Source: an uncultured bacterium
GTDB lineage: Bacteria; Margulisbacteria; WOR-1; CAVSGV01
Reading direction: 5' to 3'
Assembly (NCBI GenBank): GCA_963699255.1
Contig: OY969425.1
Span: 690,001-722,000, forward strand
Length of the DNA stretch: 32,000 nt
Positions within the stretch are counted from its first letter, which is position 1; each line of letters opens with the position of its first letter. The notes under the pieces were generated by a model. That model had not been told where the DNA came from. It searched no databases and saw only the letters and a list, made by a program, of their open reading frames with translations. This document shows positions 4,367 to 26,783 of this stretch, one piece after another. The position numbers and the translations under genes are program-made.

Positions 4367-5802
4367 ACAGACACCTTCCCTTCGGTAACTATCTTGATCG
4401 AATGATAGATTATATCAAGCATTCCGCTTAAATCCACGTTCGAAATGCAGAACGGAGGCATAATAACGATAATGTCCGAGAGAGGCCGTATTATCAGACC
4501 GCGCTTCCTCGCTTCCATTATCACATTGATGCCGATCTTTTCGGACACTCGGTATTCTTTCTTAGTTCTCTTATCCTTTACAAGCTCTATTCCCGCAAGG
4601 AAGCCGCACTGGCGCACGTCTCCTACATGATTAAGCTTGCGGAATCCCCTGAGCTTTTCGGCCAGCAATCTTATCTTTGGCTGCAACTTTTGCAGCGTTC
4701 TCTCTTTACTGAAAACATCTATCGACGCTATTGCCGCGGCGCACCCGAGGGGATTCCCGGTGTAGGTGTGTCCGTGATAAAAAGTCCTGTGGCTCTCCTG
4801 CGTGCCAAGGAAAGCCTTGAATATTTTTTCCGTTGTCAGGGTCGCGGCAACAGGAAGATACCCACCGGTCAGGCCCTTAGCGACGATCATTAGATCGGGC
4901 TTCACGCCTTCGTGCTCACAGGCGAACATTTTGCCGGTCCTTCCAAATCCCATCGCAACTTCATCGACTATCATCAGAATATTGTATTTCGTGCAAAGTT
5001 TTCTTATCCCCTTAAGATACCCTTTCGGATACACAAGAATTCCCGCCGCCGCCTGGACAAGCGGCTCCACTATCATCGCGGCGATCTCCTTGTGATGAGC
5101 TTTCATTATCGTTTCAACCGCTTTCAAACACTTCATCTCGCACTTCGCATCCCTGCCCGCCGAAGCCTTGGCGTAGGCGGGTCGCATCTCACATCTGTAG
5201 CAATACGGTGTCGGCGCCTTGAACGATCTGAAAAGCAGCGGTTTATACATCTTATGGAACAGGTCGATCCCCCCGACCGAAACGGACCCGATGGTGTCCC
5301 CATGATATGCGTTAACCAGAGTTAAGAACTTTGTCTTGAATTTGGGATTTTGAAATTGTTTAGGATTTCGGATTTCGGATTTCGGATTTTTTCTCTGCTG
5401 CCAATATTGGAACGCCATCTTTAACGCTATCTCGACGCCTTCCGATCCCGAATCAGAATAAAAAACCCTGGTCAACCCTTTCGGCGCAAGTTCGATGATC
5501 TTTTCGGCAAGCAAGGTTGCCGGAACATTCGATAATCCGAGCATCGTCGAATGCGCGATCTTGTCGATCTGTTTTTTTACCGCCCTGTCGATGGCCGGAT
5601 GCCTGTGGCCGTGAACATTCACCCAGAGGGAAGAAACGCCGTCGATGTACCATTTGCCGTCAATGTCCTTGATCCACGCGCCCCGGCCTTCCTCAATGAT
5701 AAGCGGCTCTTCTTTCATCCAATCCCGCATCTGAGTGAAAGGATGCCAGATATACTTATGATCAATATCTTTCAATATATTTTGTTTCATGGTTGTCTCC
5801 AA
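4363..5802 (-). CDS. bioA: Adenosylmethionine-8-amino-7-oxononanoate aminotransferase
   Basis: Class-III aminotransferase motifs (YHGDT, DEVAMGFGRTGK, HGHTYTGNP) and biotin operon context. Carries a heptamer-encoded loop insertion (NPKSEIRNPKQFQNPK). Confidence 0.9.
   Translation of the reverse strand: METTMKQNILKDIDHKYIWHPFTQMRDWMKEEPLIIEEGRGAWIKDIDGKWYIDGVSSLWVNVHGHRHPAIDRAVKKQIDKIAHSTMLGLSNVPATLLAEKIIELAPKGLTRVFYSDSGSEGVEIALKMAFQYWQQRKNPKSEIRNPKQFQNPKFKTKFLTLVNAYHGDTIGSVSVGGIDLFHKMYKPLLFRSFKAPTPYCYRCEMRPAYAKASAGRDAKCEMKCLKAVETIMKAHHKEIAAMIVEPLVQAAAGILVYPKGYLKGIRKLCTKYNILMIVDEVAMGFGRTGKMFACEHEGVKPDLMIVAKGLTGGYLPVAATLTTEKIFKAFLGTQESHRTFYHGHTYTGNPLGCAAAIASIDVFSKERTLQKLQPKIRLLAEKLRGFRKLNHVGDVRQCGFLAGIELVKDKRTKKEYRVSEKIGINVIMEARKRGLIIRPLSDIIVIMPPFCISNVDLSGMLDIIYHSIKIVTEGKVSV
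5363..5390. repeat. Tandem heptamer block GGATTTC x3 + GGATTTT (decayed units extend back to ~5336), in-frame inside bioA
   Basis: Direct reading: ggatttc ggatttc ggatttc ggatttt. On the coding strand it encodes NPKSEIRNPK. Confidence 0.9.
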
Positions 5803-5865
5803 AACGGAAAGCGTTATGCGGTAGCGTCCTCATTCCCCACACGCCACCCCTGAACACAAGACGCT

Positions 5866-6525
5866 TTACATCAATTTCTCCAATATCTTCTGCGCCCTGA
5901 TCTGCTTCAAAAGCTCCTTGAAAGAGCTTTTCGCGCGGATCATGCCTATCACCGGTACGCCGGAAAGCTCCTCGATGACCTGTTTATTGGTCTTCTGGGA
6001 AGGCTCCCTGCCGTTAAAGCCGTTCATGATGATGCCGGCGATCCTGATCTTCCTTTTCCTCAGCGCATCAATCGTCATCAAAGTATGATTAATGGTGCCA
6101 AGCCCTGCCCTGGTTATTATGATCGCCGGAATACCCAGGTCTTTTATCATATCCGCGATATAATAGTCCCTTTTAACAGGCGCAAGCGCCCCGCCGAGGC
6201 CTTCCACAAAGACCAGTCCCCGGCCGTTCTTGAGTTTTTGGACGTTCTTTTTGATCCTGTTCATATCGATGCTGATCTTTTCGGCCTTCATCGCCGCGTA
6301 AGGGGATAAAGGCTGCCTGAATTTCACCGGATTGATCGAATCGATGGTGTCCTTGAGGTCCAATTTTGCTCTGTAAAATCGCGCGTCCTCGATCCCTCCG
6401 CAGGATATCGGCTTGCTTATGCCGATCATAAAGCCGTTTGACTGCGCGACATATCCCAGCCCCGCTGTTATGAACGTTTTGCCGACCTCGGTGTCTGTAC
6501 CCGTAATGAAATACGCTTTAGACAA
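5866..6525 (-). CDS. bioD: Dethiobiotin synthetase (TTG start)
   Basis: P-loop ITGTDTEVGKT, operon context. The start codon reads TTG, with GAGGGA 6 nt upstream. Confidence 0.88.
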   Translation of the reverse strand: MSKAYFITGTDTEVGKTFITAGLGYVAQSNGFMIGISKPISCGGIEDARFYRAKLDLKDTIDSINPVKFRQPLSPYAAMKAEKISIDMNRIKKNVQKLKNGRGLVFVEGLGGALAPVKRDYYIADMIKDLGIPAIIITRAGLGTINHTLMTIDALRKRKIRIAGIIMNGFNGREPSQKTNKQVIEELSGVPVIGMIRAKSSFKELLKQIRAQKILEKLM

Positions 6526-6541
6526 AATATTCCCTCGTCTC

Positions 6542-6569
6542 GGAGCCTGAGGCTGAACGCCTCGGCTCC
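6542..6569. other. GC-rich hairpin in the bioF-bioD spacer
   Basis: ggagcc-t-gaggc / tgaac / gcctc-ggctcc: an 11-bp stem with one bulge and no following T-run. Confidence 0.6.
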
Positions 6570-6588
6570 ATGTTATTATGATAGGTCC

Positions 6589-6602
6589 AACTAGATCTAG
6601 TT
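6589..6602. other. Perfect 14-bp palindrome AACTAGATCTAGTT
   Basis: Self-complementary on direct reading. Confidence 0.7.
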
Positions 6603-6626
6603 ACGCCCATATGACAAATTGGAACC

Positions 6627-6659
6627 GCGACTTTCCTTACCGCCTCTGGCGGTAGTCGC
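6627..6659. other. GC-rich hairpin immediately after the bioF stop
   Basis: gcgact-(ttcctt)-accgcc / tct / ggcggt-agtcgc: 12 paired bases with a 6-nt internal bulge. Confidence 0.55.
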
Positions 6660-6665
6660 AGATTC

Positions 6666-7592
6666 CTAGCCAAGAAATTCACCTTTCATTTCATCAAGCA
6701 GGTCCGCAAGCTTATTGATATCTTCTTTTGTGTGTTTGGCCGTTACGCTCAATCTGAGGCGCGAAGTCCCCTCAGGCACGGTCGGCGGCCTGATAGCGGA
6801 AAGGAGTATCCCTTTATCATACAGGAACTCCGATGCTTTCATGGCTTTCTTGGCATCCCCGACGAATATCGGTATTATCTGGGTGGTGGATCCCATGGTA
6901 TTCAGTGCCATCCGGGCCAGCCTTTTCTTAAGGTACGCGATGTTGTTCCATATGGCCCTGCGGAAAGAGTCGTCCTTCCTTATTATTTCCAGCGCGGCTA
7001 TGGATGCCGCGGTAACGGCAGGCGGCAGCGCGGTGGTATATATGAAAGACCTGGCCTTGTTCTTAAGATATTCGATAAGTTTGCTCGTCCCGGATACGAA
7101 TCCGCCCAGCGACCCGACCGCCTTGCTCAGCGTCCCCATTATGATCATGTCCCTTTTTGCCGCGGGATACTTCATCTCAAGAGGCAGGATGCCCGTCGAA
7201 TGAGCGGTATCAATCATCAGCATGGCGTTATACTTTTTCGAAAGGGCGGCAAGCTCATACAGCGGCGCCACGTCGCCGTCCATGCTGAACACATGGTCGG
7301 TCACGATAAGTATCCTCCGGAAGTTATTCGCCTTAGCCAGTATCTTCTCAAGCCGGTACATGTCCCTGTGGGGATATACCAGCAGTTTCGCCCCCGAAAG
7401 CCTGGCGCCGTCTATGATGCTCGCGTGGTCGAGGCGGTCTATGATGACGGCATCGTCTTTCCCGACAAGCGCCTGTATGGTCCCCATGTTAGCCATGTAA
7501 CCGCTGGGAAATACTATGGATGCTTCCGTGTTCTCGTACGCCGAGTATCTCGTATTCCAGTTCTTCATGTATGGCGTAGTTGCCGGAGACAA
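6666..7592 (-). CDS. bioF: 8-amino-7-oxononanoate synthase, C-terminal ~290 residues (frameshifted gene, part 2)
   Basis: Homology-like sequence starts at SAYENTEASIVFPSGYMANMG. Also DHASIIDG and the PLP-Lys region GTLSKAVGSLGG. Continues the 7489..7824 ORF after a 1-nt frame change near 7541-7551. Confidence 0.85.
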   Translation of the reverse strand: MSPATTPYMKNWNTRYSAYENTEASIVFPSGYMANMGTIQALVGKDDAVIIDRLDHASIIDGARLSGAKLLVYPHRDMYRLEKILAKANNFRRILIVTDHVFSMDGDVAPLYELAALSKKYNAMLMIDTAHSTGILPLEMKYPAAKRDMIIMGTLSKAVGSLGGFVSGTSKLIEYLKNKARSFIYTTALPPAVTAASIAALEIIRKDDSFRRAIWNNIAYLKKRLARMALNTMGSTTQIIPIFVGDAKKAMKASEFLYDKGILLSAIRPPTVPEGTSRLRLSVTAKHTKEDINKLADLLDEMKGEFLG

Positions 7593-7824
7593 GCCGCGAT
7601 GCTCCCGCGCCGACGCCGTGCGTCTTAAGGACTTCTATCGCCTTTTCGATCACTTTCGGATGGCTGGAAAGGCCAAGGTAGTCGTTCGAGCAGAAATTTA
7701 TCAGCTGCTTCCCCTTAATGACGACCTTTGAATCAAGCCCTTCTTCTATGGCTTTCAGCGTCCTGTATAGATCGTTCTTTTTTATTTCATTAAGCTCCTC
7801 GTTGATGAAATCCATCCTTGCCAT
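7489..7824 (-). CDS. bioF: 8-amino-7-oxononanoate synthase, N-terminal ~93 residues (frameshifted gene, part 1)
   Basis: LINFCSNDYLGLSSHPKVI...GVGAGASRLVSGNYAIHEELEYEI is typical BioF. The remaining tail (LGVREHGSIHSISQRLHG) is out-of-frame junk. Confidence 0.85.
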   Translation of the reverse strand: MARMDFINEELNEIKKNDLYRTLKAIEEGLDSKVVIKGKQLINFCSNDYLGLSSHPKVIEKAIEVLKTHGVGAGASRLVSGNYAIHEELEYEILGVREHGSIHSISQRLHG

Positions 7825-7825
7825 G

Positions 7826-8803
7826 TCAGTTCGCCACCTCCAATCCCATATCTTTGATCATCTGCAGGTCAACCTCCGGGGAATTCCCGGACGTCGTTAG
7901 ATAATTCCCAAGTAAAGTCATATTGGCTCCAGCTAAATACATCAAGGGCTGGAGTCCGCCGAGCGAAAGCTCACGTCCCCCAAAAATACCGATGTCCTTG
8001 CCGGGCATCACGAACCTGAATGTGGCGACCAGTCTCAAAACTTCGAGGGGCGGCATCACCTTTAACTTTTCAGCTCTTGTGCCCCTGACAGGGTTTAAGA
8101 TATTGATAGGTACGGATTCCGGGTCCAGATCTTTCAGCTGGAAGGCCAGCTCGACCCTCTGCTCTAGCGACTCGCCGAGGCCGAAAATGCCGCCACAGCA
8201 GATGCGCAACCCCGTGCTTTTCGCCGCTCTGACGGTGGCGACGCGTTCCTCGAATTTGTGCGTGGTGCAGACCTTGCCGAAGAAGCTCTTCGCGGCTTCA
8301 AGGTTGTGATGGAACTTCCTGAGTCCCGCGGCCTTCAACCTTTTGAGCTGCTCTCCTGTAAGTATCCCGATGGATGCACAGTGGTCCATATTAAGCTTCT
8401 TGTCGATCTTTGAGACCGCCCGGCATATCTCATCTATCTCCTTTTCGGACTTGATGCCCCTACCCGCCGTGACTATGCCGAAACACGTTGCACCGTTCTT
8501 TTTGCTTGCCTGCGCGCTCTTGTACATCTCGCCGGATGATATCAGCGGATAAACATCGATGGCGGTTTTGTGATGTGCTGATTGCGAGCAGAACATGCAG
8601 TTCTCGGAACATTTGCCTGATTTGGCGTTTACGATCGAGCACAGTTTGACCTTGTTCCCCTTGAAGTGCCGACGGATCTCATTCGCGGCAAAAATAAGCT
8701 GAAAAGTCTCGCTTTCCGGACGCTTGATAAGATAGAGGGCTTCCTCGAAGGATATCGGGGAGCCTTTTATCGCTTTTTCCTGCAGACGGGCAATTTTTGA
8801 CAT
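7826..8803 (-). CDS. bioB: Biotin synthase (radical SAM)
   Basis: CSENCMFCSQS CxxxCxxC motif, family length, operon context. Confidence 0.92.
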   Translation of the reverse strand: MSKIARLQEKAIKGSPISFEEALYLIKRPESETFQLIFAANEIRRHFKGNKVKLCSIVNAKSGKCSENCMFCSQSAHHKTAIDVYPLISSGEMYKSAQASKKNGATCFGIVTAGRGIKSEKEIDEICRAVSKIDKKLNMDHCASIGILTGEQLKRLKAAGLRKFHHNLEAAKSFFGKVCTTHKFEERVATVRAAKSTGLRICCGGIFGLGESLEQRVELAFQLKDLDPESVPINILNPVRGTRAEKLKVMPPLEVLRLVATFRFVMPGKDIGIFGGRELSLGGLQPLMYLAGANMTLLGNYLTTSGNSPEVDLQMIKDMGLEVAN

Positions 8804-8825
8804 AACCAGAGGATTATATCATAAT
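8797..8825 (+). promoter_or_regulatory. Sigma70-like promoter of bioH-bioC
   Basis: TTGACA (8797-8802), 17-nt spacer, CATAAT (8820-8825). Only 8 nt separate it from ATG 8834, and there is no SD. Confidence 0.55.
8813..8821 (-). promoter_or_regulatory. Extended -10 element TGATATAAT of bioB
   Basis: Minus strand reads tgatataat, then 9 nt, then ATG 8803. It overlaps the bioH promoter spacer. Confidence 0.45.
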
Positions 8826-8833
8826 AGAAAGAT

Positions 8834-9649
8834 ATGAAAAAACACCTGGTGATGCTCCACGGCTTCGGCTGTGACTCAAGGGTATTCTCATCGATCGGAA
8901 CGAAACTGTCAAAAGACCATGACGTCCTTATGGTGGACCTGCCCGGCCACGGCCAGACCAAGGAAAAGTTCGGCGATTTTTCTTTCTCCGCTTACACGAT
9001 ACTTCACGCGCTCGACCAATATCTGGGCGAGCCTTACTCTCTTCTCGGCTGGTCGATGGGAGGACAGATCGCGCTAGAAATGTACAAGCAAACAAAGAAG
9101 AGATGGGAGATGAGAGATGCGAGATGCGAAAAGCAAGAGTCTAAATGCAAATGCGGGCACGATCACGAACATGAACATGCGCACAGCGATATCACATCGC
9201 TCATCCTCGTTTCATCCACGCCAAAGTTCGTGGCTTCAGACGATTTCCCATTCGGAATGAACAAGGCCGTTTTCAGCAAGTTCAGAAAGGGTCTAAAAGA
9301 TCACCCTGAAAAGACAATGAACGATTTTTACAACCTTGTATTCTCTGACAACGAGGATGCGTCCTTGTTTCTATCCAGCATCCAAACCCAAACCCCATCC
9401 CAACAGACCCTTCTAGAATGCTTGAAAAGTTTCGAGCGCTTCGACGGAAGGAACATTCTTCCCGCGGTGAACGTCCCCACCCTGATAATGGCCGGCGACG
9501 GCGATGAGGTGATCGACCCGAAGGCGTCGCTTTATCTGTCGCAGGAAATAAAGAGCAGCTCATTGAAGATGTTCAGGGGCGCCGGACACGCGCCGCATCT
9601 TACAAGAGAAAAGGAAATGATCGATGAGATCTCAAAGTTCCTTGGATAA
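8834..9649 (+). CDS. Alpha/beta hydrolase, BioH-like pimeloyl-ACP methyl ester esterase, with a ~30-aa low-complexity insertion
   Basis: LHGFG oxyanion region and GWSMGG nucleophile elbow. C-terminal GAGHAPH. Sits between bioB and bioC. Insertion is KKRWEMRDARCEKQESKCKCGHDHEHEHAHSD. Confidence 0.65.
   Translation: MKKHLVMLHGFGCDSRVFSSIGTKLSKDHDVLMVDLPGHGQTKEKFGDFSFSAYTILHALDQYLGEPYSLLGWSMGGQIALEMYKQTKKRWEMRDARCEKQESKCKCGHDHEHEHAHSDITSLILVSSTPKFVASDDFPFGMNKAVFSKFRKGLKDHPEKTMNDFYNLVFSDNEDASLFLSSIQTQTPSQQTLLECLKSFERFDGRNILPAVNVPTLIMAGDGDEVIDPKASLYLSQEIKSSSLKMFRGAGHAPHLTREKEMIDEISKFLG
9100..9127. repeat. GAGATGN heptamer block x4, in-frame inside the bioH-like gene
   Basis: gagatgg gagatga gagatgc gagatgc, followed by decayed units gaaaagc aagagtc taaatgc aaatgcg. 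Confidence 0.9.
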
Positions 9650-10428
9650 GAACAAGATAGCCCGGTCCTTTTCAAGATCGGCCGAGACTTACGACCTGTT
9701 TTCCCGGCTGCAAAAAGACCTTGCGAACGATCTGGTAAAGTCCGTAGCATCCATCAATATCTCCCCGAAGAACATACTTGATATCGGCACGGGAACAGGT
9801 AATGTTGCATTCCTGCTGCATGAAAGATACAGGGACGCCATTATCACCGGCTGCGACATAGCTCCTGGAATGATAAAGAAAGCCGCCAACAACAACCCTT
9901 ATGAGAACGTGGCTTTCGAGGTGGCTGACGCCGAGAACCTGCCTTTTACGGATAAGAAGTTCGATCTTGTAGTATCCAGCACGACATTTCAATGGGTCGA
10001 GGACCTTTCCAGGGCGTTCTCGGAGGCGAAAAGAGTTCTCATCCCCGGCGGGTACTTCGCATTCGTTACTTTCGGGCCAAAAACCCTGTCGGAACTTAAA
10101 CGGAATTACAAGATCGCCTTCGGTGAAGATGCGGATCATCTGCACAAGTTCAATAACATGCGCGAGATACAGGCGATGCTGAAAACGGCCGGTTTTGAGG
10201 CTTTAAAATTGAACTCCGACACGCTGAGGGAATTCTACCCTGATTTCAGGACGTTCTTCAGGTCGCTGAAGGGGCTCGGAGCGCTGAACGCCTCGCCGGA
10301 CCTGCCGAAAGGTCTAAGGTCACCGGACAAAGATGAACGCGCTGATCAAGTATTACGAGACCAACAGCAGGATAGGGAACCGGGTTTATGCGACGTTCGA
10401 GGTCATCAGAGTGCTCTGCAGGGCGTGA
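9624..10428 (+). CDS. bioC: Malonyl-ACP O-methyltransferase; C-terminus requires a 1-nt frame change at ~10318-10332
   Basis: SAM motif LDIGTGTGNVAF. The raw ORF (to 10439) ends in an implausible tail, RSPDKDERADQVLRDQQQ... The +1 frame reads HRTKMNALIKYYETNSRIGNRVYATFEVIRVLCRA*, a typical BioC end, stopping at 10426-10428. Confidence 0.8.
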
Positions 10429-10841
10429 TCAGAACTTGACCTCTATCGCCCTGGGCGGGCACGGAAGAACGCACAGTTCGCACGCGATGCATTTTTCCGG
10501 ATCGAACTCCACCTCATCGTTTTCCTGTCGTTTATATAAAGCGCTCCCACAGGGCACTGAGCGACGCACGCCCCGCACTGAGTGCATTTGTCCCAGTTGA
10601 CCACGATGTCTTTTTCCAGCGGCTGGACATTCACCCCTTGTTTCTTCAGGTAATCGAGGCCTTTTTTGATCTCGGCTTCCTCTCCCGTCAGCTCCAGCAC
10701 CATCAGCCCCTCGTCATCCGGCATTATGTTCGCCCGCAGTATATTGAAAGAGAGCCCGTAATCCTTGATGAGCCTGTAAACTATCGGCTGGTCTATCTTT
10801 TCTTTTGGGAACTTGAGCACTATCCTTTTTGATGTTGTCAT
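10429..10841 (-). CDS. NIL-domain / 2x[4Fe-4S] ferredoxin protein (MA1822-like); C-terminus requires a frame change at the T4/A4 run 10520-10523
   Basis: N-terminal NIL-like region, then CTQCGACVAQCP. The raw ORF tail (MRWSSIRKNASRANCAFF...) lacks the second cluster. The -1 frame gives EVEFDPEKCIACELCVLPCPPRAIEVKF* (stop 10429-10431). Start taken at ATG 10841, 9 nt after AAGGAG. Confidence 0.75.
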
Positions 10842-10854
10842 AATTATCATCTCC

Positions 10855-10898
10855 TTAATTGGTCATTGAGTCATTGTTAATTGTGTCATTGTTTAACA
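10855..10898. repeat. TTAATTG/GTCATTG 7-8-nt tandem block in the COG1900 / NIL-ferredoxin intercistronic region
   Basis: ttaattg gtcattg agtcattg ttaattg tgtcattg tttaaca. The minus strand reads CAATGAC/CAATTAA units containing TGA and TAA. Confidence 0.8.
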
Positions 10899-12094: not shown

Positions 12095-12114
12095 TTTTAC
12101 CAACTCCTTTTCTA

Positions 12115-13038: not shown

Positions 13039-13065
13039 ATATCCATCCCTCCTCCAGGCCGCCAC

Positions 13066-15145: not shown

Positions 15146-15973
15146 ATGCTTAAATCCCAAGATGGCGTTATTTTTTACCGGGAATGGAACTGCCCTTCTC
15201 CCAAGACGGTCGTCATACTTGTCCACGGGCTTGGCGGGTACTCGGGAAGATTCTTCGAGTTCGGCCCTTACCTGGCAAAGCACGGCATGCAGGTCTATGC
15301 AATAGAGCTTAAAGGCTTCGGCGAATCCCCTTCCGTAAAAGGCCACATCGATAACTTCCAGACCTATACGAACGAACTGAAGTCCCTCGTTGTAACGGCG
15401 AAAAAACTGCATGCGGAAAAAAAGATATTCATGTTCGGCGAATCGATGGGCGGGCTCATCACGCTTGATTTCTTGATCCATCACCAGAACATGATCGACG
15501 GGGCGATCCTGATGTCCCCCGCCGTAAAAGACAAGCTGCCGATGCCCTTTGCGAAAAAACTGGAGATCTTCAGATCCGCGATGTTCGATCCGATGGCGTT
15601 CTTCCCTGCCGGCTTCTCGGCGGAGTTGTTCACGCGCGACAAAGTGATGGCAAAAAGGATAAACAACGACCCTCTCGAGGTGAGGCAGTTCACGGCAAAG
15701 TTCTTTTTCTCGATATTGAAAGCGATGATATTCGTGAGCATGAAGCCCCGCGCGATCAATCTTCCCGTCCTCATGCTGCTTGCGGGGCATGACTCGATGA
15801 TCTCTGCTGAAACCGCGGAGAGGTATTTCAAGAAAATGCCATCGAAGGACAAAGAACTGAAATGGTATCCGGAAATGTTCCACGCGCTTTATGTTGATAA
15901 GGATAGAGAGCCTGTTTTCAAGGATATTGTTGATTGGATAAATAAAAGAGCAGAGATGGGAGATGTGAGATGA
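15146..15973 (+). CDS. Alpha/beta hydrolase, lysophospholipase/monoacylglycerol lipase-like
   Basis: [16 protein letters not shown] nucleophile elbow, C-terminal FHAL. Overlaps the glpK start (ATGA). Confidence 0.8.
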
Positions 15974-15980
15974 GAGGTGT
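15953..15980. repeat. GAGATGN heptamer block x4 spanning the lipase stop and the glpK start
   Basis: gagatgg gagatgt gagatga gaggtgt. Contains the lipase TGA (15971-15973) and the glpK ATG (15970-15972). Confidence 0.9.
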
Positions 15981-17469
15981 GAAGAAATACATATTAGCTA
16001 TAGATCAAGGCACCACCGGCTCAACGATCATCATCTTCGACAAAAAAGGCGGAATAGCATCGAGAGCTTACCGAGAATTCCCTCAGATATTCCCAAAGCC
16101 AGGCTGGGTGGAGCATGACCCTGTCAAGATATGGCAGTCGGTAAAGCTGACGATAACCGACGCGCTAAAGGCCGGAAAGATCAAGGGAAGCGAGATCGCC
16201 GCGATCGGTATCACAAATCAGAGAGAAACCACGATCATATGGGACAGGAAGACAGGCAGGTCGATCTACAACGCTATCGTATGGCAATGCAGAAGGACAG
16301 CGCAGATATGCGACGCCCTGAAAAAGAAGGGTCTTGAGCCCTACGTCCAGAAAGCGACCGGGCTGAAGATAGATGCGTATTTCTCGGGAACAAAGATAAA
16401 GTGGATACTAGATAACGTCAGAGGAGCTAGAAGAGCTAGAGGAGGAAGATGTGGGGGATTGGCTTTTGGGACTGTTGATACATGGATAATATGGAATCTG
16501 ACTGATGGCAAAAGTCACGTTACCGACTATTCAAATGCTTCAAGGACGATGATTTACAACATTCGAAAGCTTGATTGGGATGAAAAGCTCCTCAAAATAC
16601 TTCGCATTCCGCGTTCTCTTCTTCCCAAGGTCGTCCCCTCTTCCGGAATTGCCGGGCGCACAAAAGGCCTAGGGGTCCTGCCGGACGGTATACCGATCGC
16701 AGGAATAGCCGGCGATCAGCAGGCTGCTTTATTCGGGCAGGGCTGCCACGAGCCCGGGGACATCAAGAACACTTACGGAACCGGCTGTTTCATGCTTGTT
16801 AACACCGGAACAAAGGCCGTTAATTCAAAGACCGGCCTTTTGACAACGATCGCATGGGGAATTGATAAGAAAGTCTTTTACGCTCTTGAAGGCTCCGTTT
16901 TCATTGCTGGCGCCGCGATCCAATGGATCCGCGACGGACTGGGTCTGATCAAGAAAGCTGCAGAGACCGAAGCTATCGCAGAGTCGGTCCCTGACACAGG
17001 CGGCGTGTATTTTGTCCCTGCTTTCGTCGGCCTTGGCGCGCCTTACTGGAACATGTACGCGCGCGGCACTATCACCGGAATAACCAGGGGCACGACCAGG
17101 GCTCATCTGGTCCGCGCGACGCTTGAGTCCCTTGCCTATCAGACAAAGGATGTACTCCTCTGCATGCAGACGGATTCGCATCTCAAGATAAGATCGATGA
17201 AAGTGGACGGTAAAGCCGCGGAGAACGGTTTCCTGATGCAGTTCCAGGCGGATATCCTGCCGGCAAAAGTGATCCGGCCAAAGATCATCGACACCACCGC
17301 GCTCGGGGCGGCGTATCTCGCAGGTCTGGGAGTTGGTTTCTGGAAAAATCGGAACGAACTAAAGAAACTCTGGAAGATCGATAAAATATTCAGTCCTAAA
17401 ATGGAGAGGACTCAAAGGAATAAGTTATATCAGGGTTGGGAAAAAGCCATATCTCAAGCTCAACGTTGA
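15970..17469 (+). CDS. glpK: Glycerol kinase
   Basis: [33 protein letters not shown], full FGGY-kinase length. Confidence 0.95.
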
Positions 17470-17487: not shown

Positions 17488-17522
17488 TCTAATCTCCAAT
17501 CTCTATTCTCTAATCTCTACAA
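17488..17522. repeat. TCTAATC heptamer block x5 between convergent glpK and DUF167
   Basis: tctaatc tccaatc tctattc tctaatc tctacaa. The minus strand encodes EIRE plus the TAG stop of DUF167. Confidence 0.85.
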
Positions 17523-17724: not shown

Positions 17725-17734
17725 TGCAGAAAGC

Positions 17735-17743: not shown

Positions 17744-17861
17744 CAGAAAAGCCTCCCGCTGCTCCTCCAAATAATACCTTTTCAGAAGTGAAATTTACCA
17801 ATGGATGTTTCGATAATAAAGCGGCAGTGACCCGGCTGATGGGCATTTGGAGGCATGTAAA

Positions 17862-18953: not shown

Positions 18954-18983
18954 AAGCCAATATCAGAAACAGCGACCGTCCGC

Positions 18984-19011
18984 TTGAGACCGACAGCAGT
19001 AGTGTTATAAT
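18984..19011 (+). promoter_or_regulatory. Sigma70-like promoter (with TGn extension) of the glpA-like operon
   Basis: TTGAGA (18984-18989), 16-nt spacer ending in TGT, TATAAT (19006-19011), then 8 nt to ATG 19020. No SD. Confidence 0.55.
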
Positions 19012-19019
19012 TCCTGAAA

Positions 19020-21688: not shown

Positions 21689-22040
21689 GAACAAATTCAT
21701 CTGCATAATGTGCCCACTCGGGTGCGAGGTGGTGGTCAGGTCGGATGAAAGCGGACAGATAACCGAGATACTCGGCAATAAATGCGCCAAGGGCGAAAAA
21801 TACGCGAGGGACGAATCCGCTCATCCGCTGAGGATATTGACTTCAACTGTTGCGGTTGAAGGGGCCCAATTCGCAAGGCTCCCGGTAAGGACATCGGATC
21901 TCATACCGAAAGACAGGATGTTCGACTGCATGAAGGAGATACAGAAGGTCAGAGCCAAAGCGCCGGTGAAGCTGGGCGACAGGATCATCGAAAACATACT
22001 GGGCCTCGGCGTGGACGTGATAGCTACGAGGGATCTCTAA
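21669..22040 (+). CDS. DUF1667 domain protein
   Basis: FICIMCPLGCEV motif. Third member of the conserved glycerol-3-phosphate oxidoreductase trio. Confidence 0.7.
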   Translation: MSDRINENKFICIMCPLGCEVVVRSDESGQITEILGNKCAKGEKYARDESAHPLRILTSTVAVEGAQFARLPVRTSDLIPKDRMFDCMKEIQKVRAKAPVKLGDRIIENILGLGVDVIATRDL

Positions 22041-22050
22041 TCTCCAATAT
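22034..22050. repeat. Partial TCTAATC-family block between convergent DUF1667 and the LigD-PE gene
   Basis: The 13-mer tctaatctccaat (22036-22048) is identical to 17488-17500. It contains the TAA stop of DUF1667. Confidence 0.7.
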
Positions 22051-22421
22051 CAAGTCTTGCTTTTAAAGAACAGCCAGTTCTTCGGCCCCGCCTTTTTGAA
22101 CCTGATGAGATGAAAATGGCCGTTCAGCTTCTTCCCGTGTATCGCCATCTCGATCTTTTCGTCATTGAATACTATGGCATCGAAAGTGCCTTTGTCCCAT
22201 ATCTTCACTTCTCCCGCCCCGTACTGCCCCTGGGGAATGGTCCCTTCAAAGTCCCCGTAATCCAGCGGATGGTCTTCAACTTCAACGGCCAATCGTTTGA
22301 CGGACGGATCGTTAGAAGGTTCCTTTGGTACCGCCCAGGATTTCAGGACGCCTTTGTTCTCAAGACGCAGGTCCCAGTGAAGGCGCGACGCATGGTGTTC
22401 GTGTATGATGTATTTAGGCAT
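22050..22421 (-). CDS. Stand-alone LigD-type 3'-phosphoesterase (PE) domain protein
   Basis: HEHHASRLHWDLRLE...WAVPK...VEDHPLDYGDFEG.IP.GQYGAG is the LigD PE signature. At 123 aa it has no ligase or polymerase domain. Confidence 0.85.
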   Translation of the reverse strand: MPKYIIHEHHASRLHWDLRLENKGVLKSWAVPKEPSNDPSVKRLAVEVEDHPLDYGDFEGTIPQGQYGAGEVKIWDKGTFDAIVFNDEKIEMAIHGKKLNGHFHLIRFKKAGPKNWLFFKSKT

Positions 22422-22430
22422 TTCGGGAGG

Positions 22431-22439
22431 ATTATATCA
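22431..22439 (-). promoter_or_regulatory. Extended -10 element TGATATAAT of the LigD-PE gene
   Basis: Minus strand reads tgatataat, then 9 nt, then ATG 22421. The 13-mer TGATATAATCCTC is identical to the bioB copy. Confidence 0.45.
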
Positions 22440-22445
22440 CGCGCA

Positions 22446-23333
22446 TCAGATGCTAGAAATAAAATTATGGGCTGCCTCTCTTATTGGCGAATAAACCCCT
22501 ATATAGTCTTTTGCGAACGATTCCTGGATTTTTGGGCCTAACCCGAATATTTTCGGCTCTGAAACATCATCGATATTGATCGTATACATGAACATGCCCA
22601 TGGGCAGCTCTATCGGTTTTTTATTCACGACGGACACAACGAAATTATATGGATCGAATCCCAGCCCTATATCAACACCGTGGAATATTCTTGGAGCCTT
22701 AAAAGCCACCTTGCCAATATCGGGCGAGATCACCCCGAGAAATAAGGCCGCGGAAAACAGATTCCCCTCTATCTTCACTTCTACTTTATTCGGGTTATTA
22801 TTTGATTCATCTATAGAAATATGCGCATCGGGATCAAGGCGGACCATTTCGAATATTCTCGTGAAAGCGGCGTGAAGTCCGCATCTCTTAACGATCCCGG
22901 AAACAAAAAAATGAATGCTGAGATTGCTTAAATTCATTCTTTTTAATTCCTGGATGCTCGGCGCTAATATATTTTGGTAAAATTCCAGGTATCTGCCGCT
23001 GAACATCACGCCTGATCGAGCGACATCCGGGCCAAAAACATCCGCAAGGACGCTCGCTTTCCCTGAGTCATCATTTATATAAACATTTTCCGAAAGCTTC
23101 AGAACTTTCGTCCTATAATTACTTTCTGATCCATTCTCGAACATCATACAGCGCGGCACGTGCGCATAAGAAGGGCCAGCCTCCGTATTAGACATAAGTT
23201 TTTTAAATCTGGATCCGACCCAGCTATCCTCTTTAACTGTTTTCGCAAGTGTTTTATAAGGATGGGACAGGCCAAAATACGGCTTATAACCCGCCTTATG
23301 AAGATCGCATGTTTTCACCGTTCTAACTGCCAT
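22446..23333 (-). CDS. Hypothetical protein, 295 aa, no recognisable family
   Basis: Long ORF with SD GGGGGA 6 nt upstream. More AT-rich by eye than its neighbours. I recognise no motifs. Confidence 0.55.
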   Translation of the reverse strand: MAVRTVKTCDLHKAGYKPYFGLSHPYKTLAKTVKEDSWVGSRFKKLMSNTEAGPSYAHVPRCMMFENGSESNYRTKVLKLSENVYINDDSGKASVLADVFGPDVARSGVMFSGRYLEFYQNILAPSIQELKRMNLSNLSIHFFVSGIVKRCGLHAAFTRIFEMVRLDPDAHISIDESNNNPNKVEVKIEGNLFSAALFLGVISPDIGKVAFKAPRIFHGVDIGLGFDPYNFVVSVVNKKPIELPMGMFMYTINIDDVSEPKIFGLGPKIQESFAKDYIGVYSPIREAAHNFISSI

Positions 23334-23468
23334 TAATATCCCCCTGATTCGCCCTCAGAATCCTCAGATAGCGCTTATATTTCTATCCATTTATCGACCA
23401 TATGTTCCAGAAATTTCAGGTTTTTACGCGAATTCTAGGGGAATTTCAGGAAATGCTCTCGAAAGGGC

Positions 23469-24128
23469 CTATCTGGAATAATACTTCTTCATGAAAGACG
23501 CTTTTGAGGGACAGAACTGCCCTATCACGCATTCAGGGCATAAAGGACGGGGCGCCTTGCAAACGGCCCTTCCGTGGTCGACCAGATTATAATTAACCTT
23601 GCCCCAGTATTTTCTCGGGAGCAAACTCATCAGGTCCTGTTCGATCCTTCCCGGATCGTCGAACTTTGAAAATCCCAGCCTTTGTGACAGCCTGATAACA
23701 TGAGTATCCACCGCTATGCCCTCAACTTTATGGAAAGCACTATTCAGAACAACGTTCGCGGTTTTCCTTGCCACGCCGGGAAACTTGATAAGCTGTTCCA
23801 TCGAGTCGGGCACTTTTCCGTTAAAATCGGAAACCAGCATCTTCGCCATATTGATGATATTCTTCGCCTTGTTGTGATAAAAACCTGTGGACCGGATCTC
23901 CTGTTCGAACTTCCTTATATTAGCCTTCGCGTAGTCTTTCGCTGACCGGTACTTTTTGAAAAGGGTCAATGTGACGGTATTCACCCGTTTGTCAGTGCAC
24001 TGCGCGGAAAGGATCGTAGCCACTAACATTTCGAGCGGAGAATGGAATGCGAGGGCTGTTCTCGCATCTGGATATTCTTTGGACAATATTTTCAGTACTT
24101 CAAGTATTCTTGTCTTCGTCGCATCCAT
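23469..24128 (-). CDS. nth: Endonuclease III
   Basis: HhH-GPD core (LVATILSAQCTD, GVARKTANVVL, VDTHV) and a C-x6-C-x2-C-x5-C [4Fe-4S] motif at the C-terminus. Confidence 0.92.
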   Translation of the reverse strand: MDATKTRILEVLKILSKEYPDARTALAFHSPLEMLVATILSAQCTDKRVNTVTLTLFKKYRSAKDYAKANIRKFEQEIRSTGFYHNKAKNIINMAKMLVSDFNGKVPDSMEQLIKFPGVARKTANVVLNSAFHKVEGIAVDTHVIRLSQRLGFSKFDDPGRIEQDLMSLLPRKYWGKVNYNLVDHGRAVCKAPRPLCPECVIGQFCPSKASFMKKYYSR

Positions 24129-24139
24129 AAGTTGGATAA

Positions 24140-24148
24140 ATTATATCA
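24140..24148 (-). promoter_or_regulatory. Extended -10 element TGATATAAT of nth
   Basis: Minus strand reads tgatataat, then 11 nt, then ATG 24128. Confidence 0.45.
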
Positions 24149-24190
24149 CATCTTCCCCTTCTGGCTCGCCTAGCTCTTCCGTGTTAAAAT

Positions 24191-25063
24191 ATGACCATGT
24201 ACCAAATGCTTAACATCCCGCTTAACGCGGAGGATCCCCATACCTGGCATAACCTCCTCAAGTTCCCTATTTACGCGCGCAAAGACTGGATCCGCAATCA
24301 CCTGAATGCGGTTATCGCAACGCTCAAGGAACTTCTTTCAGATAAGAACGCCTTACTGAACGTGGGCCTCGACAGCCACCAGATGCCCTGGGACGCTATC
24401 GGTTTCATCTGCCTCAATGATAATCTATACAAGGAAGCGGAAACGATCTATGACAATATCTTCAGGAAATTCCAGGACATAAAGGCGGATGCAACGATCC
24501 CTCTCTATAACCGCGGCATAGCAAGGTTCCTACAGGGGCGATATCGCGACGCATACGAGGACTTTAAGCTCGCCAGGAAAGATGATCCCCATTTCTACGA
24601 CAAGGACAGTCTCACTTTCGGCGCGATAAAATATATGGACGAGGTGCTCTTCCCCACCCGCGAGACCATCAAGAAAAATCAGGAAAAGCTGATCAAGGAC
24701 CTGAACACGCCGAAGATGGTGGATGATGTTTCTGGCCCCAACAAGCTGAAAATAATCCGGAAATGGAATTCATCGACCCCGCTCTACTCACAAACGCCGA
24801 GCCTCGGCGGAGGTTATTATCTGACCCTGAAGAACTCCCGCGGCGAGACCAAAGGCATCGTCATCGACCCCGGATACAATTTCCTTGAAATATTCAGGGA
24901 GCAGTGCCTGGGCATCCTTGACATCGACGCGATAATAGTAACGCACGATCACGACGACCACTCGGAATCGGTCGAAGGCATATTGAGCCTGGTGGCAAAA
25001 TACAATGATTACAAACTGCGCGGCCCGTCAAAGGTGCTGGATATTTTCGGATCCCCGGCGTGA
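24191..25063 (+). CDS. TPR-like N-terminal domain + first half of an MBL-fold hydrolase (split gene, part 1)
   Basis: TPR-like helices (LYKEAETIYDNIF, LYNRGIARFLQGRYRDAYEDFKLA). MBL motifs 1-2 (GIVIDPGYNF, THDHDDH). Ends VLDIFGSPA* at a C4 run. Which start ATG is used (24191, 24197 or 24206) is uncertain. Confidence 0.7.
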   Translation: MTMYQMLNIPLNAEDPHTWHNLLKFPIYARKDWIRNHLNAVIATLKELLSDKNALLNVGLDSHQMPWDAIGFICLNDNLYKEAETIYDNIFRKFQDIKADATIPLYNRGIARFLQGRYRDAYEDFKLARKDDPHFYDKDSLTFGAIKYMDEVLFPTRETIKKNQEKLIKDLNTPKMVDDVSGPNKLKIIRKWNSSTPLYSQTPSLGGGYYLTLKNSRGETKGIVIDPGYNFLEIFREQCLGILDIDAIIVTHDHDDHSESVEGILSLVAKYNDYKLRGPSKVLDIFGSPA

Positions 25064-25749
25064 TGCTGAAATACCAGGGTGTTTTCAATAAGACGGACAA
25101 GGCCGGGAATAAGGAGATAAATTTCCAGCTGATGATCCCCGGCAACAGGATAACGGAGATTGACGGCGCATCGACGATGGAAAAATACGGGTTCGAGCTG
25201 GTCGTCAACCAGGCGTATCATCCCGAGCTCTGGACCAATCAGGAATCTGCGGTCGGAGTGACCATTGAAACGAACATCATTTACAAGCATCACCCACTCA
25301 AAATAGGGATGACGGGGGACACCCGGTACGAAACTTTCATCGGGAACCAGTACCAGGACATCCAGATGCTCCTGATAAACATCGGCTCGATAGAAAAAGA
25401 GGAAGGGAAACTTCTCCACTCCCACCTCGGGCTCTGCGGAAGCATAAACCTGCTCAAGGAAGCGCGGCTCGGCAAACCTCTTCTCGCCGTCCTTACCGAG
25501 TTCGGGGAGGAATTCAGGGGCAGGAGAAAGACCATAAGCAAGATCATCGAGCTGTGGGCCCAGCCGATGGAGCCGTCCCTCATAAACCACGACTTTCGCG
25601 TTATCCCGGCCGACCTTAACCTTGAGATAGATCTGACGGACCTGAGCATAAAAGAGACAAAGACAGGCAAGTTCCATCCCTACCCAGAGATCGATTTTGA
25701 CGAACTTGATCTCGAACTCATAAGCTACAAGCATAAGCACAGCGCATGA
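25060..25749 (+). CDS. Second half of the MBL-fold hydrolase (split gene, part 2)
   Basis: Contains the remaining MBL motifs (AYHP, MTGDTRY, HSHLG). The reading frame is open upstream, so a -1 change at ~25050-25060 fuses it to part 1 (DIFGSPGVMLKYQGVF). Confidence 0.7.
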   Translation: MMLKYQGVFNKTDKAGNKEINFQLMIPGNRITEIDGASTMEKYGFELVVNQAYHPELWTNQESAVGVTIETNIIYKHHPLKIGMTGDTRYETFIGNQYQDIQMLLINIGSIEKEEGKLLHSHLGLCGSINLLKEARLGKPLLAVLTEFGEEFRGRRKTISKIIELWAQPMEPSLINHDFRVIPADLNLEIDLTDLSIKETKTGKFHPYPEIDFDELDLELISYKHKHSA

Positions 25750-26183
25750 AATTCATAGTTGATTCCATGCTCGGAAAACTCGCAAAAAGGCTGCGCCTCA
25801 TGGGATATGACACTTATTATGATGCTAAGAAAGACGACCGCGAGATACTAAAGCTTTCAAAGGAAGAGGATCGTTTAATAGTGACCAGGGACACGGGGAT
25901 GTCAAAGATACGCGGCGCAAAAGTCCTCCTGATAAGATCAACGGACATCCATGAACAGCTGAAGGAAATATCAAAGCTAAGTCTGGACAGCAACCGATCA
26001 TTTTCAAGATGCCCGGAATGCAATACTCCCGTAAAGGACGTCAGCAAAGAAGAGGTCAAGAATATCGTTCCGAAATTGGTATATGAAACGCTGAACAAGT
26101 TCTCTTATTGCCCGAAATGCAAAAAAGCCTACTGGCAGGGAACTCACTACCAAAAGCTTCTCAAAGAATTAAAAAGCATATAA
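25746..26183 (+). CDS. Mut7-C (PIN-like) RNase domain protein with C-terminal zinc ribbon
   Basis: MKFIVDSMLGKLAKRLRLMGYDT is the typical Mut7-C N-terminus. CPECN...CPKCKK zinc ribbon. ATGA overlap with the MBL gene. Confidence 0.8.
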   Translation: MKFIVDSMLGKLAKRLRLMGYDTYYDAKKDDREILKLSKEEDRLIVTRDTGMSKIRGAKVLLIRSTDIHEQLKEISKLSLDSNRSFSRCPECNTPVKDVSKEEVKNIVPKLVYETLNKFSYCPKCKKAYWQGTHYQKLLKELKSI

Positions 26184-26296
26184 GTTAGCCAGAATATTCC
26201 CCCTTGCTGTCGAAAGCGACTATAAGTGACAATTCCCCCTACAGTTTTATGCTACTTTCATGCTCAACGCATCTGGCAACAAAATTGCTAACTCAA

Positions 26297-26372
26297 GAGA
26301 TGCGAGGTGTGAGATGCGAGATGCGATAAAAACAAAAGAGATGGGATGTGCGAGATGAGAGATGCGATAAGA
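26297..26372 (+). repeat. Two adjacent GAGATGN x4 blocks upstream of, and overlapping the start of, the four-helix-bundle gene
   Basis: 26297-26324 reads gagatgc gaggtgt gagatgc gagatgc (then gataaaa). 26338-26365 reads gagatgg gatgtgc gagatga gagatgc (then gataaga). Confidence 0.9.
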
Positions 26373-26744
26373 CATTTTACCGATTTGATCGTGTGGCAAA
26401 AAGGTAATGAATTAGCCATTTTGGTATATTCCTTAACCAGCAAATTCCCCAAAAATGAACTTTTTGGACTTACAAATCAGCTCAGGAGAGCTGCCACTTC
26501 AATCCCGGCAAACATCGCCGAAGGAATGGGAAGAGGAAGTTATCCTGATAGAGCAAGATTTTATTACAATGCCAGAGGCTCGATATATGAAGTTGAAAGC
26601 TACCTCATTGTCTCTAAAGAACTGAAGCATCTTGATGTTGATAAGTTTACAAAAGCAATGGATTTATTGAACTCAACAAGAATGCTATTGAATGCTTTTA
26701 TAGCAAAGACCTTGAAAATAGGAAATGAGAGAGTATTAACCTGA
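26355..26744 (+). CDS. Four-helix-bundle protein (23S rRNA intervening-sequence protein family, TIGR02436/PF05635-like)
   Basis: DLIVWQKGNELAILVYSLTSKFPKNELFGLTNQLRRAATSIPANIAEGMGRGS...ARGSIYEVESYL matches the family pattern. Start is ATG 26355 or 26346; both lie inside a heptamer array. Confidence 0.85.
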   Translation: MRDAIRHFTDLIVWQKGNELAILVYSLTSKFPKNELFGLTNQLRRAATSIPANIAEGMGRGSYPDRARFYYNARGSIYEVESYLIVSKELKHLDVDKFTKAMDLLNSTRMLLNAFIAKTLKIGNERVLT

Positions 26745-26762
26745 GATGTATTTTCTCATCTC
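26743..26762 (+). other. Hairpin formed by a forward GAGATG unit and the first inverted CATCTC unit
   Basis: gagatg (26743-26748), 8-nt loop, catctc (26757-26762). It begins inside the TGA stop of the four-helix-bundle gene. Confidence 0.5.
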
Positions 26763-26783
26763 TGATCTCACATCTCTCATCTC
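26756..26783 (-). repeat. Inverted GAGATGN x4 block just downstream of the four-helix-bundle gene
   Basis: Plus strand reads tcatctc tgatctc acatctc tcatctc. The reverse complement is gagatga gagatgt gagatca gagatga, with the same A-rich and GAAAATA flanks. Confidence 0.9.

Follow-up and report, generated by a model that had tools for sequence, protein, structure and literature searches.

The 32,000-nt stretch of DNA analysed here (in the following: the window) originates from an uncultured bacterium of the Margulisbacteria (WOR-1, CAVSGV01; assembly GCA_963699255.1, contig OY969425.1, positions 690,001 to 722,000) and contains a series of short arrays built from tandem heptanucleotides. Three of these, of the sequence family GAGATGN, are located between the gene of a Mut7-C RNase-domain protein and ssb (Table 1). 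These blocks, which start at 26297, at 26338 and, in inverted orientation, at 26756, form the arms of a cassette of 446-487 nt and exactly bracket a gene of the PF05635 family. The cassette comprises 446 nt when counted from the inner 5' arm (26338-26783) and 487 nt when counted from the outer one (26297-26783). The inverted copy had been seen in an initial annotation of the window, which overlooked the enclosed gene; this gene is key to the anatomy of the element.

All arrays listed in the initial annotation were re-read in the window, with positions and sequences as given there. Tandem Repeats Finder (TRF) reports period 7 at 5359, 9100, 15952, 17483, 26297 and 26757, and a sliding four-unit self-similarity test yields six period-7 arrays in the window versus a mean of 0.00 in 30 dinucleotide shuffles, with no enrichment for any other period from 5 to 12. 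In consisting of tandem 7-nt units beyond chance length, the arrays resemble heptanucleotide simple sequence repeats. The strict 7-nt period claimed for all of them stands for these six; the array at 10855-10898 is irregular (TRF prefers period 15 or 8 with indels), and 26338-26365 is more degenerate than the other copies.

Table 1. Heptamer arrays and associated features of the window
Feature	Positions	Strand	Sequence and remarks
Conserved motif upstream of the cassette	26277..26289	+	CAACAAAATTGCT; read as ssb -10 region, directly upstream of the cassette
Outer 5' arm	26297..26324	+	GAGATGC GAGGTGT GAGATGC GAGATGC; with 26325-26337 a ~41-bp tandem duplicate of the inner arm
Inner 5' arm	26338..26365	+	GAGATGG GATGTGC GAGATGA GAGATGC; holds the start codon of the PF05635 gene
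Four-helix-bundle gene, PF05635 (23S rRNA intervening-sequence protein, S23p)	26355..26744	+	Pfam match; orthologues in L130 and L131
3' arm	26756..26783	-	Reverse complement GAGATGA GAGATGT GAGATCA GAGATGA; pairs with the 5' arms
ssb ribosome-binding site and start	26792..26815	+	AAAAGGAGGTGATAACCAATGATG; host sequence right after the cassette, kept in empty sites
Solitary module, BioH-like esterase surface loop	9100..9127	+	GAGATGG GAGATGA GAGATGC GAGATGC; in-frame (...KKRWEMRDARCEK...)
Solitary module, junction of lysophospholipase-like hydrolase and GlpK	15953..15980	+	GAGATGG GAGATGT GAGATGA GAGGTGT
GlpK loop	16420..16461	+	The same loop in L124 and L126 is in-frame (GAGAYGN)4, RDARRETRDAK
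BioA loop site 1, (GAAATCC)n array	5335..5394	-	In-frame, KNPKSEIRNPKQFQNPK
BioA loop site 2	5128..5193	-	GAGATG units (CEMR...CEMK) and nested 29-nt GC-rich hairpin insert 5153-5181
GAGATTN-type array (TCTAATC)	17488..17522	-	GAGATTA GAGAATA GAGATTG GAGATTA GAAATTAAACAT; 19 nt past the GlpK stop
13-mer	22036..22048		TCTAATCTCCAAT; identical to 17488-17500; spans the DUF1667 stop codon
Irregular period 7/8 array, CAATGAC/CAATTAA	10855..10898	-	Short leader of the NIL-ferredoxin gene

The cargo protein of 132 residues matches PF05635 with E = 8e-35 and 119.7 bits (cut-off 33.8), and the SSB encoded downstream matches its Pfam family with E = 2e-31. The open reading frame (ORF) tool places the start of the cargo gene at 26346; the homologous genes of relatives speak for the ATG at 26355, which is derived from a GAGATG unit of the arm: GAG ATG AGA GAT GCG ATA AGA encodes MRDAIR, and the homologous arm in two relatives (L130 and L131; numbers of this kind designate the loci compared) reads GAG ATG CGA GAC GCG ATT AAA, or MRDAIK. 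What had been described as a decayed fifth unit, GATAARA, represents in the cassette the codons for A-I-K/R. The tandem duplication (~41 bp, 26297-26337 versus 26338-26378) comprises the 5' arm and the first cargo codons (GAGATGCGATAA...); this segment is present as a single copy in L130 and L131.

Outer 5' arm and 3' arm constitute the longest inverted repeat of the window (I1; 26297-26329 with 26751-26783, 33 nt, 82% complementary, 421 nt apart), and the inner 5' arm forms a further inverted repeat (I4) with the 3' arm. In the predicted minimum-energy RNA fold of 26286-26800 (-137.6 kcal/mol, z = -3.35), the stem of the outer 5' arm and the 3' arm closes the whole element. The duplex of these two arms has a computed energy of -40.1 kcal/mol, versus -15.3 +/- 3.2 for shuffled partners, and that of the inner 5' arm with the 3' arm -37.0 kcal/mol. 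The antisense copy at 26756 is most plausibly the sequence with which the 5' arm pairs.

Scanning metagenomes with the Mut7-C protein gave 29 related loci from freshwater-sediment samples. Among close relatives the cassette is sporadic, the junction being empty, full, ORF-deleted or filled with another PF05635 cassette: the Mut7-C/ssb spacer is empty (~120 bp) in L129, L133, L134, L135, L137, L139, L140 and L141, holds a cassette of the window type in L130 and L131, and consists in L138 of both arms and only the first 11 cargo codons (MRDAIKHFTDL); L132 and L144 have different PF05635 genes with other heptamer-type arms, and two leftover units, GAGATGC GAGGTGC, are found on the left side in L132. 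Ahead of the insertion point, the relatives have the motif GGCATGAAAATTGCT or TATAATTGCT, at empty and occupied sites alike; it is presumably the -10 region of ssb, in which case the cassette would lie within the ssb leader. In empty sites (L129 1233-1262, others), an inverted repeat GGTATC...GATACC can be recognized by eye in the ssb leader around the ribosome-binding site AAAGGAGG.

In its build the cassette resembles the ORF-bearing intervening sequences (IVSs) of 23S rRNA in Leptospira, Coxiella burnetii and Azospirillum lipoferum, which likewise have PF05635/S23p as cargo. The IVS of Coxiella burnetii measures 428-444 nt, contains an S23p ORF, possesses a 28-bp terminal stem and is cut from 23S rRNA by RNase III (PMC4990558); that paper says nothing of a heptamer period in the arms. 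The size of the window cassette falls into the same class (~400-750 nt), its complementary termini of ~28 nt close the element, and its sporadic presence among close relatives is a further shared property. In contrast to an IVS, the cassette is located outside rRNA, between the Mut7-C gene and ssb, and not in a 23S helix; because an Rfam search of the window matched zero families, rRNA included, it is IVS-like and not an IVS in the strict sense. We consider this IVS-like identity highly probable.

In many other bacteria, too, heptamer arrays, mostly in inverted orientation, flank PF05635 genes. A tblastn search with the four-helix-bundle protein against plasmids gave 28 records, mostly from Nostocales, of which 14 were examined; all family assignments are above the Pfam threshold. 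Inverted arrays (units given as 5' / 3') surround the gene in Nostoc punctiforme and Aulosira (AGGAGTC / GACTCCT; L158, L163), Geminocystis (GGGAAAA / TCCCTTT; L160), N. edaphicum (GGGAACA / TGTTCCC; L164), Anabaena 90 (GGTGACA, ~40 units / TGTCACC; L166) and Stanieria (GGCAGAA / CTTCTGCC; L169). The PF05635 genes of Picosynechococcus and Leptolyngbya also have inverted arms, with a purine-rich 5' arm; those of L020 (Daejeonella) and L092 have inverted heptamer arms, and in most other cassettes GGAG, GAGG or AGGA occurs within the 5' array. At a different locus, in L126, inverted GGAAGCG-type arms were seen by inspection, for which a duplex test gave no support for pairing (z = +0.8). In Azospirillum lipoferum (L168), the PF05635 match lies inside a full-length Rfam match to large-subunit rRNA and is accompanied by inverted period-7 arms (CAGAGGA CGGATGA...); this element is a genuine 23S IVS. 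Among 13 PF05635 genes that had not been retrieved via an array pattern, four-unit period-7 arrays are present on both sides of 6 (0.0 expected) and on at least one side of 9 (0.6 expected), and the flank complementarity of PF05635 genes beats shuffles (z <= -2.5) in 13 of 19 cases.

Three of the plasmid-borne PF05635 genes with flanking heptamer arrays (L159, L161 and L166, from Picosynechococcus, Pseudanabaena and Anabaena 90) reside within cas operons on the same strand; the positions seen are between cas10 and cmr3 and between cas6 and cas4. Such a location of PF05635 genes has been reported earlier (PMC3936711).

The likeness to the short tandemly repeated repetitive (STRR) sequences of cyanobacteria, drawn in the initial annotation, was apt, as STRR-type arrays in Nostocales flank PF05635 genes in the same manner as in the window. 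STRR heptamers were reportedly described in heterocystous cyanobacteria by Mazel in 1990; their units are CCCCAGT, TTGGTCA and CAACAGT. Both STRR sequences and the window arrays are short tandem heptamers and mostly intergenic. They differ in unit sequence (GAGATGN, GAAATCC, GAGATTN and CAATGAC in the window), in the unit number, which is fixed at four in the window, and in the host, which is here not a cyanobacterium.

The GAGATGN family itself is not confined to this lineage. Searching GTDB genomes for exact matches to three consecutive GAGATGN units revealed at least 120 array loci; by our own estimate, chance alone would give ~17 matches to this pattern. Bacteroidota, Gemmatimonadota, Verrucomicrobiota, Acidobacteriota, Chamaesiphon and others are represented among the matches listed, to which the counts out of 120 given here and below refer. 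A reverse-complement partner is located downstream of the array in 11 of the 120 loci and upstream in none, with spacers of 24-450 nt, and reversed and complemented controls gave 0-1. This purine-arm-first polarity is equal on both strands; neither a DNA cruciform nor slippage alone would be expected to produce it. The arrays of these phyla have 3-30 units (median 5; exactly four in 27%), and the units drift within them. Two generalizations were considered and discarded: that all GAGATGN arrays adjoin a PF05635 gene is ruled out by the GTDB loci, where this is so in 2 of 120, and that ORF-less inverted pairs are decayed PF05635 cassettes is true for L138, no remnant being found in the Nostocales plasmid pairs, in L131 or in the GTDB hairpins inspected. 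One GTDB locus without ORF (L114, 4805-5230) has outer arms GAGATGA x3 / CATCTCT x3, 307 nt apart, and an inner inverted pair, GTGGGAGTTGTGGGAG / CTCCCACAGCTCTCAC.

When aligned, the copies in the window and its relatives share a common layout: an A-rich leader, four GAGAYGN units and then GA(A/T)AA. In the 347 kb of window and relatives there are 22 GAGAYGN runs, 18 with four units, two with three and two with five. The initial proposal of a dispersed element of ~40 nt, as opposed to a length-variable microsatellite, thus holds in this lineage, and the widely variable unit numbers that it had named as evidence to the contrary are not the case here. All in-gene copies in the window and the relatives are in sense orientation. 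The tracts consist of four imperfect units and the in-gene copies keep the frame in all relatives, which is not the behaviour of a phase-variable contingency locus.

Solitary copies of the module are found in loops of conserved enzymes and at gene junctions. The BioH loop that follows ALEMYKQ is hypervariable among 26 homologues; L124 has a module there, too (GAGATGC GAGATGG GAGACGC GAAATGT, read KKRCEMGDAKC). Past the block, the window (9128-9184) encodes a Cys/His-rich low-complexity stretch, KCKCGHDHEHEHAH, at which relatives have CxDxxCxH(DH), and distant homologues are devoid of the whole loop; this segment may be a metal-binding loop grown from repeat DNA. An inverted match of BioB coding sequence (8423-8446) to the BioH block (I5, 75% complementary) was taken as chance. 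At the hydrolase/GlpK junction, the block supplies the TGA of the hydrolase, an SD-like (Shine-Dalgarno-like) GGGAG motif seven bases before ATG, and the ATG of GlpK at 15970; the same junction is a plain ATGA overlap without block in L124 and L126, and the window is 27 nt longer. In relatives, in-frame modules also occur at BioA loop site 2 and in the GlpK loop, and a GAGAYGN block is located directly upstream of the HhH-GPD gene, in its leader.

Loop site 1 of BioA varies most regularly. It comprises 14 codons in L123, which has no array and the sequence CCGAAAAAAAAGAAATTC at the site, 21 codons in L124 and L126, where the insert is (GAGAYGN)4, and 28 codons in the window and L121, where it is (GAAATCC)n; each step of seven codons corresponds to three heptamers (21 nt). 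On the window's forward strand, the array reads GGATTTC x4 at 5363-5390, with a last unit GGATTTT. Because L123 has CCGAAAAAAAAGAAATTC at the same spot, the GAAATCC array looks home-grown, that is, it appears to have grown in place from local CCGAAA/GAAATTC sequence. At loop site 2, the hairpin insert (gagatgcga / cccgcctacgccaaggcttcggcgggcag / ggatgcga; -15.6 kcal/mol) belongs to a second insert family of small GC-rich hairpins read in-frame, e.g. as PAYAKASAGR, LRLRSGQG, RLRPEDYGGQAKE and LPASQGEALQAG, which were seen in bioA of the window (5153-5181, minus strand) and of L126, in bioH of L121 and in the BioH homologues P0019, P0021, P0026, P0046, P0050 and P0051. Rickettsia palindromic elements, small repeats of ~100-150 bp inserted as palindromes in-frame in protein genes, resemble these sites insofar as repeats are accommodated in-frame in surface loops of conserved enzymes and vary among relatives; the window, in contrast, inserts a single 28-nt tandem-heptamer arm, with loop steps of 21 nt.

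Intergenic sites that are empty in the window hold other small genes in L124 (11549-11770, 19596-19994, 20115-20336) and L126 (11557-11778, 15885-16352, 19408-19629), namely PF02594, DUF559/PF04480 and a second PF05635 gene; one of the PF02594 genes abuts a four-unit GAGAYGN block (L126 19389-19416).

The remaining arrays of the window are of other families. From its sequence, the GAGATTN-type array at 17488-17522 may be the relic 5' arm of a lost cassette; its tail, GAAATTAAACAT, seems to resemble GATTAAACAC, the sequence next to the arm on its downstream side in L130 and L131. A stem of this array with the block at 15953 around glpK was tried and found weak (-30.3 versus -19.8 +/- 3.8 kcal/mol, 5 of 7 positions complementary, with 15950-15984). 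For the 13-mer TCTAATCTCCAAT, ~0.001 chance matches are expected in 32 kb by arithmetic. The spacer between HcyBio and the NIL-ferredoxin gene contains a different small repeat or hairpin in each relative (window 10851-10885, L123 8526-8606, L124 13700-13783, L126 12252-12339); intergenic spacers of this lineage turn over quickly.

The GAAATCC, CAATGAC and GAGATTN arrays belong to a general phenomenon of heptanucleotide repeats in bacteria. According to the summary in PMC4679880, Mrazek (2007) found heptamers to be the commonest class of long repeats with units of 5-11 nt in many bacteria, with a bias of replication or repair towards 7-nt slippage as a possible cause. Repeats of TAACTGA are found in Beggiatoaceae, cyanobacteria and Bacteroidetes, often just upstream of start codons (PMC4679880), and convergent inverted pairs have been noted for the GGGAATC heptamers of Xanthomonas (PMC4692102). 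In the hmw leader of H. influenzae, (ATCTTTC)n folds into a long hairpin, which RNase III cleaves, and changes in repeat number require both RNase III and the hairpin (PMC12721329). All three share with the window the 7-nt units and the intergenic bias, and their papers contain no link to PF05635; the hmw arrays, moreover, are long, perfect and phase-variable, in contrast to the short, imperfect four-unit arrays of the window. In the literature searched, whose coverage mostly excluded subscription journals, a link between heptamer repeats and PF05635 was not found. Miniature inverted-repeat transposable elements (MITEs) and REPINs (REP doublets forming hairpins), which derive from mobile elements and are non-autonomous, are similar to L138, where both inverted arms are kept and the gene is lost, as in a MITE compared to its parent element; the window cassette differs from them in that neither a transposase nor a target-site duplication is visible and in its arms, which are built of tandem repeats and not of unique terminal inverted repeats.

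Our gene calls place 94% of the window within genes and leave 1851 bases intergenic. Pfam assigns bioA-bioD-bioF-bioB on the minus strand together with a copper-type ATPase and PFK; a BioH-like esterase, BioC, the NIL-ferredoxin gene, HcyBio, CysK and Rrf2; the lysophospholipase-like hydrolase, GlpK, a HEAT protein, GlpA/B and DUF1667; a LigD phosphoesterase domain, HhH-GPD, a TPR/metallo-beta-lactamase protein and the Mut7-C protein; and, thereafter, the 132-residue PF05635 protein, SSB and others. A VIT-like membrane protein was labelled without a Pfam run. The nearest named matches of HcyBio are from Margulisbacteria, WOR-1 and Saganbacteria (76-78% identity) and from Chloroflexi (76%). Looked up by exact sequence, the four-helix-bundle protein, SSB and BioH of the window had no matching record. 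Compared to intact orthologues in L123, L124 and L126, three apparent frameshifts, seen as a switch of the tblastn frame inside each gene, are located at ~7545 (bioF), ~10325-10331 (bioC) and ~10512-10554 (NIL-ferredoxin gene); they are either assembly indel errors or pseudogenes. As had been pointed out initially, every array either reaches a start or stop codon or lies in-frame. This is true and carries little information, because an insert that survives must be in-frame or fall within the small intergenic remainder; if the length of an insert is not divisible by three, gene boundaries are the positions that selection leaves to it.

The GAGATGN blocks are probably copies of one ~40-nt module, which forms the arms of the cassette and, copied or left over, the solitary blocks, the cassette being a small selfish element of IVS-like build in a protein-coding transcription unit. 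Such an element could function in the following manner: The cassette would be transcribed together with ssb, and its arms would fold into a stem of ~28 bp that consists of 6-bp helices with a break at every seventh base. This stem may be cut by RNase III, as are rRNA intervening sequences and the hairpin of the hmw leader; the chances of such processing are, in our estimate, about even. The ssb mRNA would retain its own ribosome-binding site, and for this reason the insertion would be tolerated. The purine-rich 5' arm would double as SD-like motif and ATG for the cargo gene. Solitary modules would represent single arms, either copied or left over, which persist only where they are harmless: inside genes they are read as hydrophilic loop residues in the sense frame, with length steps of seven codons, and a module at a junction would survive if stop, SD and start are re-created. 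Their derivation from arms is, in our estimate, evenly balanced between right and wrong.

Several observations weigh against this interpretation. Most bacterial heptamer arrays are not located beside a PF05635 gene; such a gene occurs at 3 of the 120 GTDB loci, adjoining the array in two and ~2.5 kb away in the third. Conversely, PF05635 genes can deviate from the arrangement: the arrays are direct and not inverted in Pseudanabaena (L161), one-sided at some loci (L162, L165; on the 3' side in two copies of Nostoc 7120), of period 8 in Gemmatirosa (L167), reduced to scraps in Calothrix and absent from L025 and L157. The ORF-less inverted pairs of Nostocales plasmids contain other small hairpins and zero remnant of PF05635. 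At the ssb site, comparison of empty and full sites reveals no visible target-site duplication, an enzyme for movement is not evident, and a promoter consensus scan of 26100-26900 did not call AAAATTGCT as a -10 region; for terminators and promoters in general, scanning this segment yielded nothing useful. The home-grown GAAATCC array favours a general 7-nt slippage bias over copying. Furthermore, co-transcription with ssb and cutting by RNase III are steps that we infer.

The blocks might instead be neutral heptanucleotide microsatellites that arise from a 7-nt slippage bias and survive where they are harmless, the cassette arms being just two such arrays. Heptamers as the commonest long-repeat class in many bacteria, the GAGATGN arrays of many phyla with their 3-30 drifting units, the three-unit steps of the BioA loop and a GAAATCC array seemingly grown from local sequence would all fit this explanation. 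Slippage, however, yields neither reverse-complement partners nor the 11:0 polarity of the matches listed, and it does not account for four units in 18 of 22 runs of this lineage with conserved flanks, for the flanking of one gene family on both sides far above expectation, or for the series of presence, absence and deletion at one site, which renders a purely neutral origin unlikely. The initial annotation had proposed that the blocks act as translational punctuation, and one may also think of a site for a regulator such as a cold-shock or S1-domain RNA-binding protein, similar to MacGregor's proposal for TAACTGA. As a local effect, punctuation stands at 15953, where the block gives TGA, GGGAG and ATG, and at 26338, where it gives the cargo start codon; the 5' arms with SD and ATG for the cargo, the block directly upstream of HhH-GPD in relatives, the GGAG, GAGG or AGGA in the 5' arrays of most other cassettes and the TAACTGA repeats just upstream of start codons point in the same direction. 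A general function of this kind is not supported: the hydrolase/GlpK junction is blockless in relatives, the Mut7-C/ssb junction is empty in eight, orthologous junctions thus work without blocks, and blocks are polymorphic among close relatives. Approximately half of the independent sites are intragenic, where punctuation is impossible and the BioH, BioA and GlpK blocks merely contribute loop residues, and the copy at 26756 is antisense. A role of this kind is accordingly quite improbable.

The pairing energies allow for yet another explanation, in which RNA of the 3' arm, (CAUCUCN)4, pairs in trans with (GAGAUGN)4 in the bioH, bioA and glpK mRNAs, creating RNase III sites and coupling the target genes to expression of the cassette. 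The duplex of 15950-15984 with 26751-26783 (-48.4 kcal/mol) and that of the BioH block with the 3' arm (-39.6) are in the range of the cis stem (-40.1), all in-gene blocks are sense, and coding loops, too, preserve the length of four units. The sense bias can be explained equally by the peptides that loops tolerate, though, the blocks are absent from some orthologues, and the genes sampled were picked by synteny, so that no functional theme can be derived from them; an antisense network, including the coupling of its targets, has a slim chance similar to that of the punctuation or regulator site. An artefact of assembly or sequencing, for which the three apparent frameshifts in BioF, BioC and NIL-ferredoxin might speak as the assembly carries indel errors or pseudogenes, is refuted for practical purposes, since the same blocks are present at orthologous sites in independent JGI, ENA and NCBI assemblies. 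Examples are the orthologous blocks in the JGI and ENA assemblies L124/L125 and L126/L127.

Heptamer repeats have reportedly been described since 1990, in the form of STRR sequences, and a study of 2007 is said to have identified them as the most common of the longer simple repeats, with no agreement on their function and origin; for the intervening sequences of 23S rRNA and the S23p gene, an agreed explanation is not known to us either. Heptamer repeats and rRNA intervening sequences are known separately, and their link across phyla appears to be new in the literature searched: a heptamer-armed cassette located in an mRNA leader, the genuine intervening sequences of rRNA and the four-helix-bundle genes found in Nostocales, Bacteroidota and Gemmatimonadota seem to be objects of one kind. 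It is tempting, if rather unlikely to be correct, to regard the heptanucleotide excess of bacteria, STRR sequences and their kin, as largely the footprint of widespread, hitherto unrecognized IVS-like hairpin cassettes with inverted heptamer stems and PF05635 as typical cargo. If this were true, the protein or the processing of the stem by RNase III would help to make, copy or maintain the arrays, and the 28-nt arm, also copied into mRNAs here, would be a trans pairing site for complementary arm RNA. The cassette link provides a testable lead on the nature of bacterial heptamer repeats, and the toleration of a fixed 28-nt module in-frame in the conserved enzymes BioA, BioH and GlpK, in steps of seven codons, matters for the annotation of metagenome-assembled genomes and for the evolution of protein loops.

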